Positions 8,560 through 61,060 of a DNA stretch of 64,000 bases are shown here, piece after piece. The translations under genes were made by a program, and so were the position numbers. The DNA comes from Eledone cirrhosa. Lineage: Eukaryota. A model generated the notes under the pieces. That model ran no database searches and was not told the origin of the DNA. It saw only the letters and a program-made list of their open reading frames with translations. Position 1 is the stretch's first letter. Every line of letters starts with the position of its first letter. The stretch spans positions 125,612,001-125,676,000 of the forward strand of contig OZ024745.1 in assembly GCA_964016885.1 (NCBI GenBank), read 5' to 3'.

Positions 8560-8668
8560 TCAAGAACCCTCCGATAAGTCCTGAATATCCGAGGCTGCAG
8601 GTAGTGGCTTGATGTTCATTTGAACAAACTTTCCAGTTAAATAACATCAGTGACTGAGACTCCAAGAA

Positions 8669-8717
<49 letters not shown>

Positions 8718-9120
8718 GTTTTGGACAAAGAAAAAAGATCGTGCCTGATTGTGGATGTGGCCTGCCCATTCGACACGAGAGTGCAAGAGAAGGAGAGGGA
8801 GAAAATTAACCGATACCAGGACTTAAAGTGGGAGGTAAAAAGGATTTGGAACTGCCATGAAGTCAAAGTGGTCCCAATTGTCATAGGCGCACTACGTACT
8901 ATCTCAAAAAGTTTCCAGGGATGGTTAAAGAAAATTGGCTCCACCACGCTTTTTGGAACGCTTCAAAAGGCATGCTTGCTGGGAACAGCAAGAACCCTCC
9001 GATACGTCCTGAATATCTGAGGCTGCAGGTAGTGGCTTGATATTCATTTCAACAAACTTTCCAGTTAACTAACATCAATGACTGAGACTCAAAGAACAAT
9101 AACAATAATAATAATAATAA
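8560..9120 (+). mobile_element. Two tandem 5'-truncated R4/Dong-type non-LTR retrotransposon copies in (TAA)n
   Basis: ORF 8715-9020 encodes a restriction-like endonuclease C-terminus (IVDVACPFD...KINRYQDL...VVPIVIGAL...LQKACLLGTAR). The 3' end is duplicated at 8560-8668 and flanked by (TAA)n. Confidence 0.85.
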
Positions 9121-9295
9121 TCTCTCATAAAATCTCAATATCTTCACGCAGAAAAGCCAGCCTGCAAGATTGTATATAAATGCTTGCTCCTCAAGAAATC
9201 TTAATGATGAACAATCATCCAACAATCTTAATGATATATGCACATCAGATATTGCAACACAAGCTACAGTGTATCTGAATAAAAGATGGGATAAT

Positions 9296-10819
9296 CATGG
9301 CTAGAACACTTCTCATCTTTTAAATATTATCTAATAACTGCACAGAACCATGTTGGTGTTAACAGATGGTCATAGCTAGAAGACTTCTCATCTTTTAAAT
9401 ATTATCTAATAACTGCACAGAACCATGTTGGTGTTAACAGATGGTCATGGCTAGAACACTTCTCATCTTTTAAATATTATCTAATAACTGCACAGAACCA
9501 TGTTGGTGTTAACAGATGGTCATGGCTAGAACACTTCTCATCTTTTAAATATTATCTAATAACTGCACAGAACCATGTTGGTGTTAACAGATGGTCATGG
9601 CTAGAACACTTCTCATCTTTTAAATATTATCTAATAACTGCACAGAACCATGTTGGTGTTAACAGATGGTCATAGCTAGAAGACTTCTCATCTTTTAAAT
9701 ATTATCTAATAACTGCACAGAACCATGTTGGTGTTAACAGATGGTCATGGCTAGAACACTTCTCATCTTTTAAATATTATCTAATAACTGCACAGAACCA
9801 TGTTGGTGTTAACAGATGGTCATAGCTAGAAGACTTCTCATCTTTTAAATATTATCTAATAACTGCACAGAACCATGTTGGTGTTAACAGATGGTCATGG
9901 CTAGAACACTTCTCATCTTTTAAATATTATCTAATAACTGCACAGAACCATGTTGGTGTTAACAGATGGTCATGGCTAGAACACTTCTCATCTTTTAAAT
10001 ATTATCTAATAACTGCACAGAACCATGTTGGTGTTAACAGATGGTCATAGCTAGAAGACTTCTCATCTTTTAAATATTATCTAATAACTGCACAGAACCA
10101 TGTTGGTGTTAACAGATGGTCATAGCTAGAAGACTTCTCATCTTTTAAATATTATCTAATAACTGCACAGAACCATGTTGGTGTTAACAGATGGTCATGG
10201 CTAGAAGACTTCTCATCTTTTAAATATTATCTAATAACTGCACAGAACCATGTTGGTGTTAACAGATGGTCATAGCTAGAAGACTTCTCATCTTTTAAAT
10301 ATTATCTAATAACTGCACAGAACCATGTTGGTGTTAACAGATGGTCATGGCTAGAACACTTCTCATCTTTTAAATATTATCTAATAACTGCACAGAACCA
10401 TGTTGGTGTTAACAGATGGTCATAGCTAGAACACTTCTCATCTTTTAAATATTATCTAATAACTGCACAGAACCATGTTGGTGTTAACAGATGGTCATAG
10501 CTAGAAGACTTCTCATCTTTTAAATATTATCTAATAACTGCACAGAACCATGTTGGTGTTAACAGATGGTCATGGCTAGAACACTTCTCATCTTTTAAAT
10601 ATTATCTAATAACTGCACAGAACCATGTTGGTGTTAACAGATGGTCATAGCTAGAACACTTCTCATCTTTTAAATATTATCTAATAACTGCACAGAACCA
10701 TGTTGGTGTTAACAGATGGTCATAGCTAGAAGACTTCTCATCTTTTAAATATTATCTAATAACTGCACAGAACCATGTTGGTGTTAACAGATGGTCATGG
10801 CTAGAAGACTTCTCATCTT
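9296..10819. repeat. 75-bp minisatellite, about 20 near-identical copies
   Basis: Unit catRgctagaaSacttctcatcttttaaatattatctaataactgcacagaaccatgttggtgttaacagatggt; period 75. Confidence 0.97.
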
Positions 10820-14303: not shown

Positions 14304-14331
14304 CTGATGAAGCGCTTATGCTCGAAACGTC
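14304..14331 (+). ncRNA. Degenerate hammerhead core, homolog of 35534-35562
   Basis: CTGATGAagcgcttatgctcGAAACGTC. Confidence 0.5.
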
Positions 14332-14491: not shown

Positions 14492-14562
14492 TTCATTTAC
14501 CAAAGGTTTCACGAAGACAGACGAGCCTGACGCAGATGTCTGACCTTGGTCGTCAGAATGAA
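14492..14562 (-). ncRNA. Hammerhead, inverted copy of 14588-14658
   Basis: Minus strand reads ttcatt-CTGACGA-ccaaggtcagac...gtctgtcttcgt-GAAAC-ctttg-GTA-aatgaa. Confidence 0.7.
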
Positions 14563-14587
14563 ATTTTATTTAAACTTTAAATAAATG

Positions 14588-14658
14588 TTCATTCTGACGA
14601 CCGAGGCTAGAAGTCTGTGTCAGGCTCGTCTGTCTTCATGAAACCTTTGGTAAATGAA
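14588..14658 (+). ncRNA. Type I hammerhead ribozyme with long, imperfect helix II
   Basis: ttcatt-CTGACGA-...-GAAAC-ctttg-GTA/aatgaa. Helix I is 6 bp; helix III is ACC:GGT. Confidence 0.7.
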
Positions 14659-19370: not shown

Positions 19371-19640
19371 GAAGGCGCATGGCTTAGTGGTTAAAGCATT
19401 GGGCTTGCAATCGAAAGGTTGTGAGTTCAATTCTCAGACCAGGTGATGTGTTCTTTCCTTGAGCAAGACACTTTATTTCACGTTACTCCAGTTTATTCAG
19501 CTGTAGAAATGAGTACAGGCCTGCCCGCCCAGCCAGTGGGATGGTGTTATCTTATGGCTAAAACAGCACGACGTGCTGTGACCAGCGGCGCCGATTGGCG
19601 CCCGACAGTCTGGTCGGTCAAGGTGATCGGTCAAGGTGAT
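19371..19640 (+). mobile_element. tRNA-derived SINE family B (CORE-like ccttgagcaagacact); other copies near 60-460 (-), 3135 (+), 5775-6052 (-), 13195 (+), 15700-16085 (-) and 38610-38865 (-)
   Basis: ggcgcatggcttagtggtta...gagttcaattc head followed by ccttgagcaagacactttatttcacgtt. Confidence 0.75.
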
Positions 19641-21723: not shown

Positions 21724-21877
21724 ATATATATATATATATTTTTTTAGTATATGTTGGTTGTATACCAACACCTCAGTATGCAGGCTGGAGCACTTGACGA
21801 AGTGCGCAGGTTGGTTTGGTTACTCCGGAGTAATGTAAAATAAAAAGTCAAATGTTTAAAATTTAGCTTCGTTTATT

Positions 21878-21932
21878 ACTGCTATATATATTTCGGTGAC
21901 AGCCATCTTTGGCTGTGACCTCTTCAGGCAGT
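21878..21932 (-). ncRNA. Type I hammerhead ribozyme, left arm of the same palindrome (sense to ADAMTS)
   Basis: Reverse-complement copy of 22169-22223 with an intact core. Confidence 0.8.
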
Positions 21933-22168
21933 CTGATTTAGTGTGGTATAGACAAGTACATATATTGTTGAGGTGTATAATTTTGTTAATACTCTGATAT
22001 GCCCAGTTCCTGGTTGGGTTGTTATTTCACTGAGGAACTGGAATCATATGGATATGATTCCAGTTCCTCAGTGAAATAACAACCCAACCAGGAACTGGGC
22101 ATATCAGAGTATTAACAAAATTATACACCTCAACAATATATGTACTTGTCTATACCACACTAAATCGG

Positions 22169-22223
22169 ACTGCCTGAAGAGGTCACAGCCAAAGATGGCT
22201 GTCACCGAAATATATATAGCAGT
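22169..22223 (+). ncRNA. Type I hammerhead ribozyme, right arm of a 432-bp palindrome
   Basis: actgc-CTGAAGA-ggtcacagcc aaagat ggctgtcacc-GAAA-tatatata/gcagt, followed directly by AATAAA. Confidence 0.8.
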
Positions 22224-22556
22224 AATAAACGAGGCTAAATTTTAAACATTTGACTTTTTATTTTACTTTATTTTATATATATATATATATATTTTTATAT
22301 ATATAATAATAATAATATATATATATATTGGAATAAATGCTTTGAAATAGCGATATATATGTGAAGATAGACATAGAATATTCGAAAATATTCTGTATGT
22401 TTATAATAAACATTTTGAAGACCTAATCGCTATAGAATAGAATACGTCACGTATTACAATTAGATTCTCGATAAAAGCAAGGGAAGTAACCGGCAACCGC
22501 TCTTTCAAACCAGTTCCTGTACACAGCTAAGTATTCTATAAGTCTCTAGCTGTGTC

Positions 22557-22645
22557 ATTCTCGATAAAAGCACTGGATATGTAATCCTGAAGATTTCTAA
22601 TAAGAATGAAACGCGTAGGTTACTTCCCTTGCTTTTATCGAGAAT
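22557..22645 (+). ncRNA. Type I hammerhead ribozyme with extended helix I (intact core)
   Basis: gtaatc-CTGAAGA-tttct aata agaat-GAAAC-gc-GTA/ggttac. Helix I gtaatc:ggttac continues, after an internal loop, as attctcgataaaagca:tgcttttatcgagaat. Helix III is palindromic (ACGCGT). Predicted cut after 22617. Confidence 0.85.
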
Positions 22646-22890
22646 CTAATTGTAATACGTGACGTATTCTATTCTATAGCGATTAGGTCTTCAAAATGTT
22701 TATTATAAACATACAGAATATTTTCGAATATTCTATGTCTATCTTCACATATATATCGCTATTTCAGAGCATTTATTCCAATTTCTAATTTCTGCCGGAC
22801 CGGCAACCGCTCTTTCAAACCAGTTCCTGTACACAGCTAAGTATTCTATAAGTCTCTAGCTGTGTCATTCTCGATAAAAGCACTGGATAT

Positions 22891-22933
22891 GTAATCCTAA
22901 AGATTTCTAATAAGAATGAAACGCGTAGGTTAC
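22891..22933 (+). ncRNA. Hammerhead copy 2, core changed to CTAAAGA (likely inactive)
   Basis: Same as 22581-22623, offset by 310 bp, except for a G-to-A change in CUGANGA. Confidence 0.75.
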
Positions 22934-23200
22934 TTCCCTTGCTTTTATCGAGAATCTAATTGTAATACGTGACGTATTCTATTCTATAGCGATTAGGTCT
23001 TCAAAATGTTTATTATAAACATACAGAATATTTTCGAATATTCTATGTCTATCTTCACATATATATCGCTATTTCAGAGCATTTATTCCAATTTCTAATT
23101 TCTGCCGGACCGGCAACCGCTCTTTCAAACCAGTTCCTGTACACAGCTAAGTATTCTATAAGTCTCTAGCTGTGTCATTCTCGATAAAAGCACTGGATAT

Positions 23201-23243
23201 GTAATCCTAAAGATTTCTAATAAGAATGAAACGCGTAGGTTAC
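23201..23243 (+). ncRNA. Hammerhead copy 3, core changed to CTAAAGA (likely inactive)
   Basis: Third 310-bp unit; same core substitution as copy 2. Confidence 0.75.
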
Positions 23244-23363
23244 TTCCCTTGCTTTTATCGAGAATCTAATTGTAATACGTGACGTATTCTATTCTATAGC
23301 GATTAGGTCTTCAAAATGTTTATTATAAACATACAGAATATTTTCGAATATTCTATGTCTATC

Positions 23364-23395
<32 letters not shown>

Positions 23396-23397
<2 letters not shown>

Positions 23398-23625
23398 GTT
23401 ATGTAATAAACAACATAAGATAATTATTTCATTTACCAGTGGTTTCTTGAAAGCAGATATTGTATCTGTTTTTAGACGACTGAAAACAGATACAATATCT
23501 GCTTTCAAGAAACCACTGGTAAATGAAATAATTATCTTATGTTGTTTATTACATAACTAATAAGCTCTGTAGCCTACATAGAGCACTCTTTTTTCCTGTA
23601 CCTCTCCGACGGAATTACTTCAATT
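23396..23625. mobile_element. Second fold-back element of the 14460 family; HHR truncated within its core
   Basis: Palindrome 23396-23560. The right arm keeps GACGA, helix II, GAAAC-cactg-GTA-aatgaa and the tail agctctgtagcctacatagagcactc. Confidence 0.8.
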
Positions 23626-26469: not shown

Positions 26470-27480
26470 AATTGTTTCTACTTTAGGCACAAGGCCAGGA
26501 ATTACCCAGTACATTACTGGTACTTTATTTTATCGACCCCGTAAGGATGAAAGGCAAAGTTAACCTCGGCGGGATTTGAACTCAGACTGTAAAGGGACGT
26601 AACTATGCTAGAAAGCATGGCGTCCAACCCTCTACAGATACTGCCAATTCAGTGTGTGCAATTGTATGTCGAAATGTACCAAATATACTGCATTCATAAA
26701 TATGGATTAAAATACCTATTAACAAAGCTTCAGACATTAGGCCTAAAATTTCATATGCATGCCACGTTGGTCAGTGAACAAGAGGAAATGTGTAAACACG
26801 CATACACTAATAATAGTTTCTACTTTGGGCACAAGGCCAACAATTATCCCAGTGTATTACTGGTACTTTATTTTAACGGTCCGTATGGATGAAAGGCAAA
26901 GTTAACCTCGGCGTTATTTGAACTCAAGATGTAAATGGCCATGACTCGATGCTTCTGATACTGCCAATCCACCGCATCCACTAATGATAATAATTCATGT
27001 TAGCGTGAATCTTATAAATGAGGAATCTAGGAATCGGTGGATTGGCAGTATCGGTAGAGGGTCGGACGCCATGCTTTGACGTATAGAGTTATGGCCCTTG
27101 CCATTCTGAGTTCAAATGCCGCCGGGGTTAACTTTGCCTTTCATCCTTATGGGGTCGATAAAATAAAGTACCAGTAATGTACTGGGTAACTTGCTGGCCT
27201 TGTGCCAAAAGTAGAAACAATTATAATTATATTGAAACCTTTGAGACAATTTATTTATTGGAAGAGGCTATTTTGCCGGTAAGATTGTCAGACGTCATGC
27301 TTTGCAGCATAGTGTTGTGGCCCTTTCCGGTCTGAGTTCAAACCCAGCCGAGATTAGCTTTGCCTTTCACTCTTACGGGGTCGATAAAATAAAGTACTAG
27401 TAATGCACTGGGGTTGATTTACTCGACTTTCCCCTCCTCCAAAATTGCTGGCCTTATTCCTAAATCAGAAACAATTATTA
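26470..27480. mobile_element. Cluster of four tRNA-derived SINEs (family A: two minus, two plus)
   Basis: A-box/B-box head (tggcagtatcggtagag...gagttcaaatccc), then gcctttcatccttacggggtcgataaaataaagtaccag, ending agaaacaattatt. About 20 or more copies in the window, for example 11820, 13887, 39670, 48546, 48716, 55425-56800, 59958 and 61430. Confidence 0.85.
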
Positions 27481-32114: not shown

Positions 32115-32300
32115 ATAATGATAAATTTGAAAACTAAAATCCAAAGAGGGCTCGATAAGGATAAATATATATCAAATATATAAGAACCCTAGAGCAAATA
32201 TTTATTAAAATAACAGATTAAAGTTTAAGCAAAGTCTCCGTTAAGGATGAAAGCAGCGATTCTTTGCTTAAACTTTAATGTGTTATTTTAATAAATATAT
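32111..32300. mobile_element. Fold-back element family in TA tracts (also 33794-33952 and 50031-50080)
   Basis: All three copies share ttatcgagccctctttggattttagt; two have an internal inverted arm. Confidence 0.75.
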
Positions 32301-33644
32301 ACATACATATTATATACGGCAGATTTTGGCAGTTTCCGTCTACCACATTCCACTCACAAGAATCTGGTCATACTAAGGCTTGGTACTGAACCTAACACCA
32401 CATAGTTGCATAGCAGACTTTTGAACTGTGAGTTAAATAGTTTGAAAAATGTTTGTTTAAAGTTTAAGATTTGCTATCACCGTGCATGCATTTGATCTGA
32501 TAACGCTAATCCTGAGTAAAATCTATGAGATAGAGAGTCCCCACTCATATGCATAGCCACACACATATACACATTTATATTTATCTTACATTTATATTTT
32601 TTTCTTATACTTGTACTATTTTAAATGGCAACCTGCAATTCAGCTGGAATAATCAATTTATTTGATTACATTGCATGGCACTAATTGCAGTATCAGCTTC
32701 ATAGGCTTATAGATGTCATGTGTACCGCCATGTGGTACCTAGTTACAGCCAAATAGACTGGAAGGAAATAGAAAGGGTCCTAACTCTCTGGTAAAGTTTT
32801 AGGGGCGCTGTCGACACACAGCGTGTCTTGTGTGTTTTCAACATAGCGTAGCTCATCTCGTTTGAACAGACTTGATTTCAGAGAGAGAGAGAGAGAGAGG
32901 GCGGGTAAAGATACTTAGAGAGAGAAAGAAAGACACGGGCTTTTTTTTTTTTGCATTTTAAACATGCTGGAGCTTATCCGTCTCCAGGTGTGAAAACAGC
33001 CGATTTCTTCGAGAAAGAGAGAGAAAGTAGGGGGTTGACCCCAGGATTGGACATACACTTTATTCATCGAGCTCAAAAGGATGAAAGGAAATTGTGTCTT
33101 TGGTTCTATTTGAACTCAGAAAAGAGTGAGCCGGAACAATCTGACGTCATAACGTGGTCGTCAGCTAAATTGAATCATTGAAAATAAGTGTTTCTACTTT
33201 TGGCACAAGGTCAGGAATTACCCAGTACATTACTGGTACTTTATTTTATCGACCCCGTTTGTCGGCTTGCTAGAGAAACAAAACAAACCAAAACAAAATT
33301 GTTGACGAGTCATAAACTTCAGACCTTTAAATTAGAATGCATTTTAACTTCATTCATCAGCAGTTTGCTGTGACATTATTTATTCATTTATTCTAAACAA
33401 TAATGTGCTGGCATTTGGAGTTACATTCTCCTTTAATCTACTTTTTATGAGGTTGTTCTGTCACCTCTGGGCATGATGTTAAATTGATCCCTTTAATTAA
33501 ATATTTAAAGGGTACCTTTAAAACTAAACAATTTTAAGCGAATTAGCGAACATTTAAATAGTAAATGGTAGTATATAATTGTTTCTACTATTAGCGCAAG
33601 GCCAACAGTTATCTCAGTGTATTACTGGTACTTTATTTTATACA

Positions 33645-34413
<769 letters not shown>

Positions 34414-35562: not shown

Positions 35563-35944
35563 GAGACAGATGGGAAGGAAAAGAGTTCCGAGAGGGTGTG
35601 AGGGGGGGGGGAGTGGTGGAAAGACATATATATTAGGTAGTAACATGTGTTTACGCCGTATTTGACTAAATAGAATTAGCCTGTTAGTTGGGATTAAAAA
35701 AAACATCCTTTGAATGAATGGTAAAAAAATAAGGATGAATATTGGCGTACATGGGACACAAACCCACACCTTTGATTTGCCGGACCAATGTGTTGCCATT
35801 ACACCAACACGCCACCCACGCTTCCTTCTTTTCAATTAGAAGCTATATAACCGTAGCAGGTATATATATATATATAAATATGGAGACACCAAAGATGGGG
35901 GCCAAGTACCATGTACGTCAATACTCATCCCTTTTTCCATTTCG

Positions 35945-49370: not shown

Positions 49371-49920
49371 AAGAAAATTTCACTCCACATGGCTGAATAC
49401 AATAAATGTAATCTGAGTTTTTCGAATATTAATAATAACATTCGATTCGTTTGCAATTATGCAAACAAGCCTCAATTTTATAGCCATGTCAGTAGAATAA
49501 ACACTTCATTCCTGCTCTTGTGTTGGCATGCGAACAGAACTGCTGACACTAATGTTTCCGGGTAACATCCTTCACCAGTACAGCTCACTGTTCACCTGCC
49601 AAACTGTCGGAGCTAGTGAAAATATATGCTATTTTAAAAAATATACAGTGACTGATCGGCCTGATTTGCATATTAGCAGACTGGCATATCAGATCTGCAT
49701 ATTAGCAGATCCCCTGATCAGCCAGATTTGCATATCAGCAGACTGGCCAGTCAGCTTCCTGTATACGAGCGATAAATGGCCGTCTTTGGTAAATTAAAAT
49801 AAAAAAGAAAATTTCGCTCTACATGGCTGAATATTGCAAATGAATCGAATGTTATTATTAATATTCGAAAAACTCAGTTTACATTTATTGTATTCAGCCA
49901 TGTAGAGCGACATTTTCTTT
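49371..49920 (-). mobile_element. Element of the 42623 family with a mutated HHR (CTGGTGA, 49537-49586) and an inverted terminal duplication (49803-49920)
   Basis: 49371-49627 is the reverse-complement homolog of 42623-42820, and 49834-49920 is an inverted copy of 49371-49457. Confidence 0.75.
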
Positions 49921-58995: not shown

Positions 58996-60608
58996 CGCTG
59001 ATCACGTAATATGTTTTGCAGTGGTCCTAGAGGAAGGCATGCAATAGAGTTTGCAGTAGTTATTTACCAGATGTTTTTCTCTGATTTCAGCTAATAGAAT
59101 TAACAGTGAATATATTAATCTGTCTGGTATGTAGAGGTCACTGTTCGCAGTGAGACTGATTGACAAACAACTTGATAGATTATAGCTAATCAGATCTATC
59201 CTCTGTAACATTCCCTTATAAAGAATTATATCCTATATGCATGGAAATAACACTGTTGATGTTAAAAGACATAGGAGTGACGTTTGTATAATTTTCTACG
59301 TGAAATTTGTTTAGTCATACAGTGTCTTGTTGACGTTGTGTTTACATCCAAGATTATCAATCGCCTCAAACCAAATAGGACCCTCCTATTTCAGTTGAGT
59401 ATTCATAACTGTGTTTGTATGACTTTTACTTGTATATTTATAGAGAACGACACGATTTGTTGATTTAAGATAAACTTAACACCCCTTTACGCTCCGTGGT
59501 TTTTGACGACTATACCAAAAAGAATTCTTTCCTTATTATATACGTCTTACGGCCGATGGATTGGGGTTTTCTATGCGGTTGCTCAACAAAAAGCAATAGT
59601 TGGATAATAAAGTCCTAGATACCCACTAGAAATGGATGTTCACCGCCGAAATGTTTTTTGATCCACGGTCTAACCAACAACAACCTTATAACTTTCTATA
59701 ACAGTCTTCTACATATTTTATGTAGTTTATAATTAACGTTTGTAGTTTGCGAACTGACTCAATAAAAAATAGAACTCATTGGTTAATGAAGTCCTAGATA
59801 CCCTTAAAAACGGATGTTCACCGCCGAAATATCTTTGATCATGGGTCTGGTTAATCAGTCCTGCTTTGCACTGAACCTAGTAACTTTCTTACGGCAGTCT
59901 TTTTATATTTCTCACATAGTTTGTTATTAATTTGAAGTTTGTAGTATGTGAATTCATTTGCCTTTCATCCTTATGGGGTTGATAAAATAAAGTACCAGTA
60001 ATACACTGGGTAATTGCTGGCCTTGTGCCAAAAGTAGAAACAATTATTTATAATATACAAGGATGCGCAAGGAGGACGCGCAAATTCGTGAAGCGTTCCA
60101 TATATTTATTTTAAGGGCTGTAGATTGGCAGTATCGGTAGAGCCTCAGACATCATCGTTCGCCACATAGAGTTATGGCCCATTACGTTCTGAAATCACCA
60201 GCTGCTTGACCAGGTTTCTTGGCAAAATTATACGTATAGAATTCATCCAGCACTGTAACATACCCCACAATGCAACTTGGTCACTTGCTTATATTCGTAT
60301 GTATAGTGATGATCAGAGCCCTACCGAAATTAGATTTAGTGACAACCCGCTCTGGGAGGTTTCACATGCGGTGGTGGTTATTGTGGATAGATCTGCCCAA
60401 GATTGCACAGGTCGATTCGTCTCCCACTACAAATGAGAAGCGCTAACATCTTGTCGAGCACCTTTGCCAGAGTATATAATCCTTTATTTGGTTCCATCAT
60501 CGGCAACGTCACTACTCCTCGGATAACACAACTGAGACCGTTCTCAGTGTGATAGTTGAGATAGAAAACTGCCAAGTGAATAGCTAACAAGTCAGACATA
60601 TAAGACTA

Positions 60609-61060
60609 AGTTTTGGCGTTATGCCCATCGCAGTACAAGGTAGACCATCAAGTTTTGGCGTTAAGCCCATCGCAGTACTAGATAGACCATCAAGTTTTGG
60701 CGTTATGCTCATCGCAGTACTAGGTAGACCATCAAGTTTTGGCGTTAAGCCCATCGCAGTACAAGGTAGACCATCAAGTTTTGGCGTTAAGCCCATCGCA
60801 GTACTAGATAGACCATCAAGTTTTGGCGTTATGCCCATCGCAGTACTAGATAGACCATCAAGTTTTGGCGTTAAGCCCATCGCAGTACTAGATAGACCAT
60901 CAAGTTTTGGCGTTATGCCCATCGCAGTACTAGATAGACCATCAAGTTTTGGCGTTATGCCCATCGCAGTACTAGATAGACCATCAAGTTTGGGCGTTAA
61001 GCCCATCGCAGTACTAGGTAGACCATCAAGTTTTGGCGTTAAGCCCATCGTAGTACCATC
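60609..61060. repeat. 42-bp minisatellite, about 10.7 copies, with an open frame on each strand
   Basis: Unit agttttggcgttaWgcccatcgcagtacWagRtagaccatca; period 42. Confidence 0.97.

Follow-up and report, generated by a model that had tools for sequence, protein, structure and literature searches.

The locus analysed here raises the question of whether the end of a cDNA can record ribozyme cleavage of the RNA from which it was copied. Within the 64,000-nt stretch of DNA under study (hereafter the window), part of a tandem array is present a second time in inverted orientation, and this inverted copy ends at the base where a hammerhead ribozyme is predicted to cleave. The original prediction was that one cDNA had run off the ribozyme-generated 5′ end of the RNA and was joined to a second, multimeric cDNA, leaving a genomic footprint of cleavage in vivo.

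The layout as first described was confirmed. The segment 22327–22491 matches the reverse complement of 22618–22782 over 165 nt with one mismatch (at 22767), the left arm thus differing from its partner arm by a single base. The GTA triplet occupies 22615–22617, and the arm match breaks off sharply at the next base, 22618. We numbered the repeat unit from the first base 3′ of GTA. The trinucleotide ACC at 22489–22491, reported previously as a junction microhomology, is indeed common to both arms; because of this overlap the position of the break could lie anywhere in unit bases 1 to 4. The array comprises 2.9 copies of a 310-nt unit and is bounded by (TA)n runs; at its short end a target T stands in place of unit C131 (23368). 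The inversion is genuine, and arms like it are usual in the 310-nt repeat family. A non-coding 310-nt hammerhead repeat, a non-LTR retrozyme, has inserted here as a fold-back with its arms back to back, one of more than 1,000 such insertions (Table 1).

Table 1. Components of the fold-back insertion, in window coordinates
Feature	Position	Strand	Description
(TA)n-rich target remnant, left	22274..22326	.	repeat analysis
Long-end arm, unit bases 1–165 inverted	22327..22491	-	reaches outward to unit base 165, the long 3′ end of the family with its tail; sequence match, 142 sampled arms ending at 165
ACC/GGT overlap, head-to-head junction	22489..22491	.	joins unit base 1 (one arm) to unit base 182 (other arm)
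Short-end arm, 2.9 tandem units	22489..23376	+	unit base 182 round to 130–139, merging into (TA)n
Type I hammerhead, copy 1	22581..22623	+	core CTGAAGA...GAAA intact; helix III palindromic; cleavage predicted at 22617/22618
Hammerhead, copy 2	22891..22933	+	core G5 to A (22899), predicted inactive core
Hammerhead, copy 3	23201..23243	+	same core G5 to A change (23209)
(TA)n target remnant, right	23368..23394	.	repeat analysis

The type I hammerhead motif present in every unit consists of helix I (GTAATC/GGTTAC), the core CTGAAGA, helix II, GAAA and helix III, which is palindromic; the motif has a predicted dimer fold. An Rfam scan of the 64-kb window returned no hammerhead at the gathering threshold, the only matches being two tRNA-like ones, and the ribozyme assignment is therefore grounded in motif, fold and variation within the family. 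The core was kept in 816 of 831 family units. Seven of the 12 common variable sites are non-core ribozyme positions, and most of the changes preserve or improve pairing; variants in helices I and II likewise leave pairing mostly preserved. The core G5 to A change, which we take to be inactivating, is found in copies 2 and 3 of the window, without copy 1, and elsewhere in only two of 865 other units. Duplication, conversion or a template switch may each have brought it into both copies.

Subfamilies of the repeat were found to differ preferentially within the ribozyme: the same seven of 12 common differences fall in its 43 bases, outside the core (p = 0.0004), at unit bases 274–295 and 2 (window 22581–22602 and 22619). 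These non-core differences suggest that the cleavage rate is tuned between subfamilies.

An exact pattern spanning the junction of unit base 165 with (TA)n had 1052 matches in the 3.0-Gb genome, which thus holds more than 1,000 insertions of the 310-nt type I hammerhead repeat. The short-end pattern of the window's own subfamily had 100. For a detailed census we took 96 of the first 100 listed long-end places (of the 1052) and 88 of the 100 short-end places; seven further short-end places were already in the sample (one being the window), and five copies of one duplicated cluster were excluded. Parsed loci (L003–L212) amount to about a tenth of the family; the window loci (L001, L002 and L121) and L122, which had been found by its break, were set aside. 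After removal of segments more than 7% diverged and merging of duplicates, 333 arms were obtained; the inner end could be seen in 320 of them, and 13 were truncated at the sequence edge. A single arm can hold up to 23 units. The median mismatch to the window unit was 1.4% (228 arms); the family is dispersed and recently mobile. No stop-to-stop frame of at least 120 aa overlaps the window element, which is without a reverse transcriptase (RT) or GIY-YIG open reading frame. A search for RNA carrying the 310-nt unit listed none. Contigs were seen for four of six listed runs of unrecorded type (in three a single 340-letter contig going back 310, in one 521 pieces); they carry no weight as RNA evidence because the run types are unrecorded and tandem DNA would look identical.

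Inner arm ends were then compared with the predicted cleavage site. None of the 320 ends in other loci lay at unit base 1 (1.05 expected), and three fell at bases 1–4 (4.2 expected). A first predicted cleavage site was reached by 258 arms, one of which stopped there; crossings totalled 792. The ends were spread along the whole unit without significant unevenness (31 bins, chi-square p = 0.12). Genome-wide, end counts in 15-base windows were 76 at unit bases 307–11, over the site, versus 142 at 11–25 and 148 at 211–225; these counts are raw, with some small deletions recognized by eye and at least eight rows of the 211–225 set coming from one duplicated cluster. In a model with evenly spread breaks and microhomology, the three windows would be expected to give almost the same counts. 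Inner ends are thus depleted at the predicted cleavage site, about two-fold, and not enriched after GTA. Starts exactly at base 1 gave seven matches in the genome; five of them were head-to-head junctions, including that of the window, and two of these five had a 165-nt arm. Control base 69 gave ten matches (seven distinct head-to-head junctions) and control base 215 gave three (one head-to-head). Any excess at the cleavage site is bounded at about 1% of ends. The supposed footprint of cleavage in vivo is thus not borne out. The two-fold dip over unit bases 307–11 (window 22614–22628) is an observation in its own right, for which microhomology bias provides no explanation.

That the window arm ends where the ribozyme is predicted to cut is probably coincidental. 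The prior for an arm end at the base after GTA is 2/310 per two-armed locus (8/310 allowing for overlap), and with more than 1,000 loci in the family such an end is not above chance; moreover, breaks are rarer at this site than elsewhere in the genome. A rare run-off event, confined to the window locus, may nevertheless have occurred.

Most inner ends (289 of 320) were head to head with the other arm; 25 met flanking sequence and six were same-strand jumps. Among 112 flush junctions, 45 overlapped by at least three bases, compared to 6.8% by chance, and a further 35 junctions contained inserted bases. The ACC overlap at the window junction is therefore ordinary for the family. In L226 the same partner break as in the window, at base 182, is joined to the GGT at base 69, the only other GGT of the unit. 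The part of the original prediction that invoked joining to a second cDNA was supported, in the form of two separately primed cDNAs meeting head to head via short microhomology, and proved general to the family; run-off as the source of the first cDNA's end was not supported.

In contrast to the inner ends, the outer ends are fixed and paired. Long ends lie mostly at unit base 165 and short ends mostly at 139 (range about 130–139). Of 127 complete fold-backs, 118 had one long and one short end, none had two long ends, one had two short ends and eight contained nested pieces. This pairing was seen irrespective of the end used for searching (53 of 57 and 55 of 60 complete loci). At least nine A/T in the ten bases beyond the end were found at all 142 ends at 165 and at 118 of 134 ends at 139, a preference to which the search patterns themselves contributed in part. 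At the short end the unit's own ACATATATAT runs into the target, with C131 changed to T in 111 cases and kept in 19, whereas the long end has only 2–3 bases in common with the target. Which of the two arms is longer varies between loci (60 versus 58), so neither is a copy of the other. The signature of Penelope-like insertion (an inverted 5′-truncated copy, a one-ended tail and a microsatellite target) is present.

Of 100 informative loci, 98 carried a single haplotype across both arms, against a mean of 12.6 after shuffling (19 haplotypes). Among locus-private variants, 81 were confined to a single unit and nine (eight loci) occurred in all units of both arms, in up to 13 units; seven more (five loci) were present in both arms but in some units only. 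Variants in several, not all, units were seen in nine loci. In L025, L171, L182 and L199 variants recur in alternate or spaced units, as expected from a multimeric circle or from later duplication. Arm lengths within a locus were correlated overall (rho 0.55), with values of 0.07, 0.54 and 0.18 within subfamilies. The rate at which arms stop is nearly constant, at about one stop in 850 nt.

Coding elements that could supply the enzyme were sought in the genome. GIY-YIG matches are numerous (150 scored of 10,596 candidates), and intact frames with RT and GIY-YIG domains are present, with a linker cysteine motif that resembles the one described for Neptune and Nematis in PMC8557442. Long RT frames with GIY-YIG matches were found in L261 (938 aa), L263 (1096 aa) and L264 (636 aa). 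A coding Penelope-like insertion, L265:260-3525, is itself a fold-back (99.7% palindrome); it carries a similar hammerhead, and just one of its arms is extended, by about 55 nt. DNA similarity of coding elements L261–L265 to the unit was not above shuffles (five of the 150 scored GIY-YIG places compared). Likewise, none of five candidate 3′ regions (from four coding elements and one window neighbour) showed kinship to the unit above shuffles, and no specific partner element emerged from these comparisons.

The window contains further palindromic elements. At 21831–22270 the retrozyme is adjoined by a fold-back of another family, with 219-nt arms 2 nt apart and a hammerhead-like motif at 22168–22225; its left arm extends a further 80–110 nt or so as a one-ended tail, and the genome has 1178 candidate places for this family. 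Nine frames beside members of this neighbouring family had no relevant Pfam match. A third fold-back with 81-nt arms (23395–23560) directly follows the (TA)n that ends the retrozyme, and the three palindromic insertions are chained via TA runs. Other inverted repeats lie at 26502–27189, 32133–33933 and 49387–49903, and matches to a hammerhead-like motif on both strands at 14304, 14556–14594, 24946, 35562, 40968, 42661 and 51670. The tRNA-like Rfam matches (19380–19437 and 35743–35813) are possibly heads of short interspersed repeats. Minisatellites occupy 9295–10819 (75 nt, 20 copies) and 60608–61056 (42 nt, 11 copies), and an open frame at 8658–9020 presumably resembles the end of a non-LTR element protein.

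We consider it probable that a Penelope-like enzyme primes on both strands of a (TA)n run and copies one likely circular RNA from two fixed starts, the cDNAs being joined by microhomology at an arbitrary point. Transcripts would self-cleave, by the ribozyme whose core is conserved, and would then be ligated into circles. A borrowed Penelope-like enzyme (the genome has intact RT plus GIY-YIG genes, one of them in the same two-arm layout) would cut both strands of the (TA)n target and prime at each end, starting at base 165 on one side and in the AU-rich patch 130–139 on the other, to give the two-arm layout with its paired ends. Each cDNA would travel round the template, halting at a roughly constant rate; copying of a single molecule by both would give the shared haplotype. 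In a repair step the cDNA ends would be joined via a few shared bases, consistent with the microhomology excess and the scattered breaks; at the window the arbitrary break point would happen to fall at the predicted cleavage site. A conserved ribozyme that never marks cDNA ends is what a ligated circle leads one to expect. Variants shared by some units only, and the core change in copies 2 and 3 of the window without copy 1, require a multimeric template or later conversion, which argues against a plain monomer circle. Shared haplotypes would equally fit one active donor per cell. Further points against this reading are that arm lengths correlate only patchily, that the five 3′ regions compared yielded no partner element, that the two-fold dip of ends is unaccounted for and that linear uncleaved RNA was the main substrate in vitro (PMC11167929). 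A more specific version is a two-headed rolling circle, in which a Penelope-like RT-endonuclease dimer sits on one ribozyme-made circle, primes on each strand of the cut (TA)n run from two fixed start points some 30 nt from each other, and yields two concatemers joined head to head; it is put forward tentatively, as something that could well be true.

The main rival to a circular template keeps the two-ended Penelope-like priming but has the enzyme copy long linear multimers, transcribed from donor arrays and left uncleaved, with both arms taken from one molecule or donor and the ribozyme kept for another step. Such transcripts would account for variants that are in both arms yet in some units only, haplotype sharing is compatible with one donor, and the ribozyme is dispensable for insertion in vitro (PMC11167929). 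Yet arms of up to 23 units occur and their ends do not accumulate at any base, the ribozyme core is conserved, and arrays would be expected to shrink with each generation; moreover, the donors are themselves fold-backs, while most of the 147 distinct junctions occur at a single place. We regard linear multimers as unlikely, though they deserve more weight than any of the remaining explanations.

L1 twin priming produces inversions when cDNAs primed by both target strands are joined through microhomology. Twin priming of this type on one linear RNA, or self-copying of a single cDNA by fold-back, would explain a haplotype common to both arms, and in 12 of the 147 junctions both ends lay within 10 bases of the same phase; about nine such junctions are expected by chance, by a hand estimate. 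Arm lengths, with either arm the longer, and inner-end positions largely refute these schemes: the inner end was within 20 bases of the other arm's start in 15 and 6 of 127 loci, where 16.8 are expected by chance. They are thus very improbable. Equally poor prospects attach to run-off at a ribozyme-cut 5′ end, with inverted arms preferring the cleavage site. The exact coincidence in the window and the five head-to-head junctions at this base genome-wide, two of them with a 165-nt arm, speak for it; the end census, with as many as seven junctions at a control base and half the control number of ends over the site, refutes it as a family rule. A bump of sampled ends at bases 11–20 (22 versus 10.7 expected), possibly trimmed run-offs, was not reproduced genome-wide, where the 11–25 and 211–225 counts are alike. 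The least credible explanation is that fold-backs are chimeras of assembly or amplification and that arrays grew by unequal crossing-over. Palindromes are frequent in the window and none of the listed contig pieces covers the junction from end to end, but the outer ends at 165 and 139 are fixed and paired one to one, (TA)n lies on both sides, arms differ by single bases, and the 81 single-unit variants remain unhomogenised.

The comparison with known systems is drawn from the accessible portions of the papers cited. Non-LTR retrozymes have been defined, and circular RNA-templated synthesis of tandem cDNA by LINE or Penelope-like enzymes has been proposed (PMC7229834); retrozymes have also been tied to Penelope pseudo-LTRs (bioRxiv 10.64898/2026.07.22.740005). 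On sequence features, the present family qualifies as such a retrozyme: as in metazoan non-LTR retrozymes, it consists of dispersed, non-coding tandem units in the range of 150–450 nt with a type I hammerhead motif in each and a GC content below 50% (34% here), and Penelope-like elements co-occur (both papers). Unlike the direct tandem arrays described in those papers, in whose consulted passages neither two-arm head-to-head insertions nor breakpoint maps appear, it is organized as two head-to-head arms with paired long and short ends; cleavage and circles were demonstrated there and are predicted here.

An inverted truncated copy with a tail at one end has been described for Penelope-like elements, whose tandem and inverted structures were called unexplained (PMC8557442). 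An in vitro study found two internal RT starts with both strands extended and a predicted dimer, and ribozyme cleavage was not required there (PMC11167929). Endonuclease-containing Penelope-like elements share with our family the inverted truncated copy, the one-ended tail (26–35 nt here, 30–40 bp there) and the microsatellite target (PMC8557442, PMC11167929), and a hammerhead with a palindromic helix III, a type described as dimer-dependent (PMC4209133), is likewise common to both. In contrast, the family has no open reading frame and both arms are multimers of the 310-nt unit. Its short end overlaps the target (TA)n by about nine bases and its long and short ends are strictly paired, while the anole element starts without homology and no difference in start site between strands was seen in that study (PMC8557442, PMC11167929). 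As in L1 twin priming, two strand-primed cDNAs are joined by microhomology to form an inversion; unlike it, the second start is independent of the end of the first cDNA, two starts are fixed and the arms are multimeric. Our literature search, made largely among the main texts of open-access papers, found no breakpoint mapping of this kind for a retrozyme. Thus, the kind of element and its insertion signature were already known, and the quantitative breakpoint rules were not found in the literature searched.

These results bear on the open question of how retrozymes and Penelope-like elements produce tandem and inverted copies. The rules that this young family provides can be counted: each insertion has a long end, a short end and a single haplotype, and its cDNAs do not stop at the cleavage site. 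They are testable in the in vitro system of PMC11167929. If the two-headed rolling circle is true, it would account in one step for the arrays of retrozymes, the Penelope tail at one end only and the inverted copy, and this genome would contain over 1,000 young records of the process.
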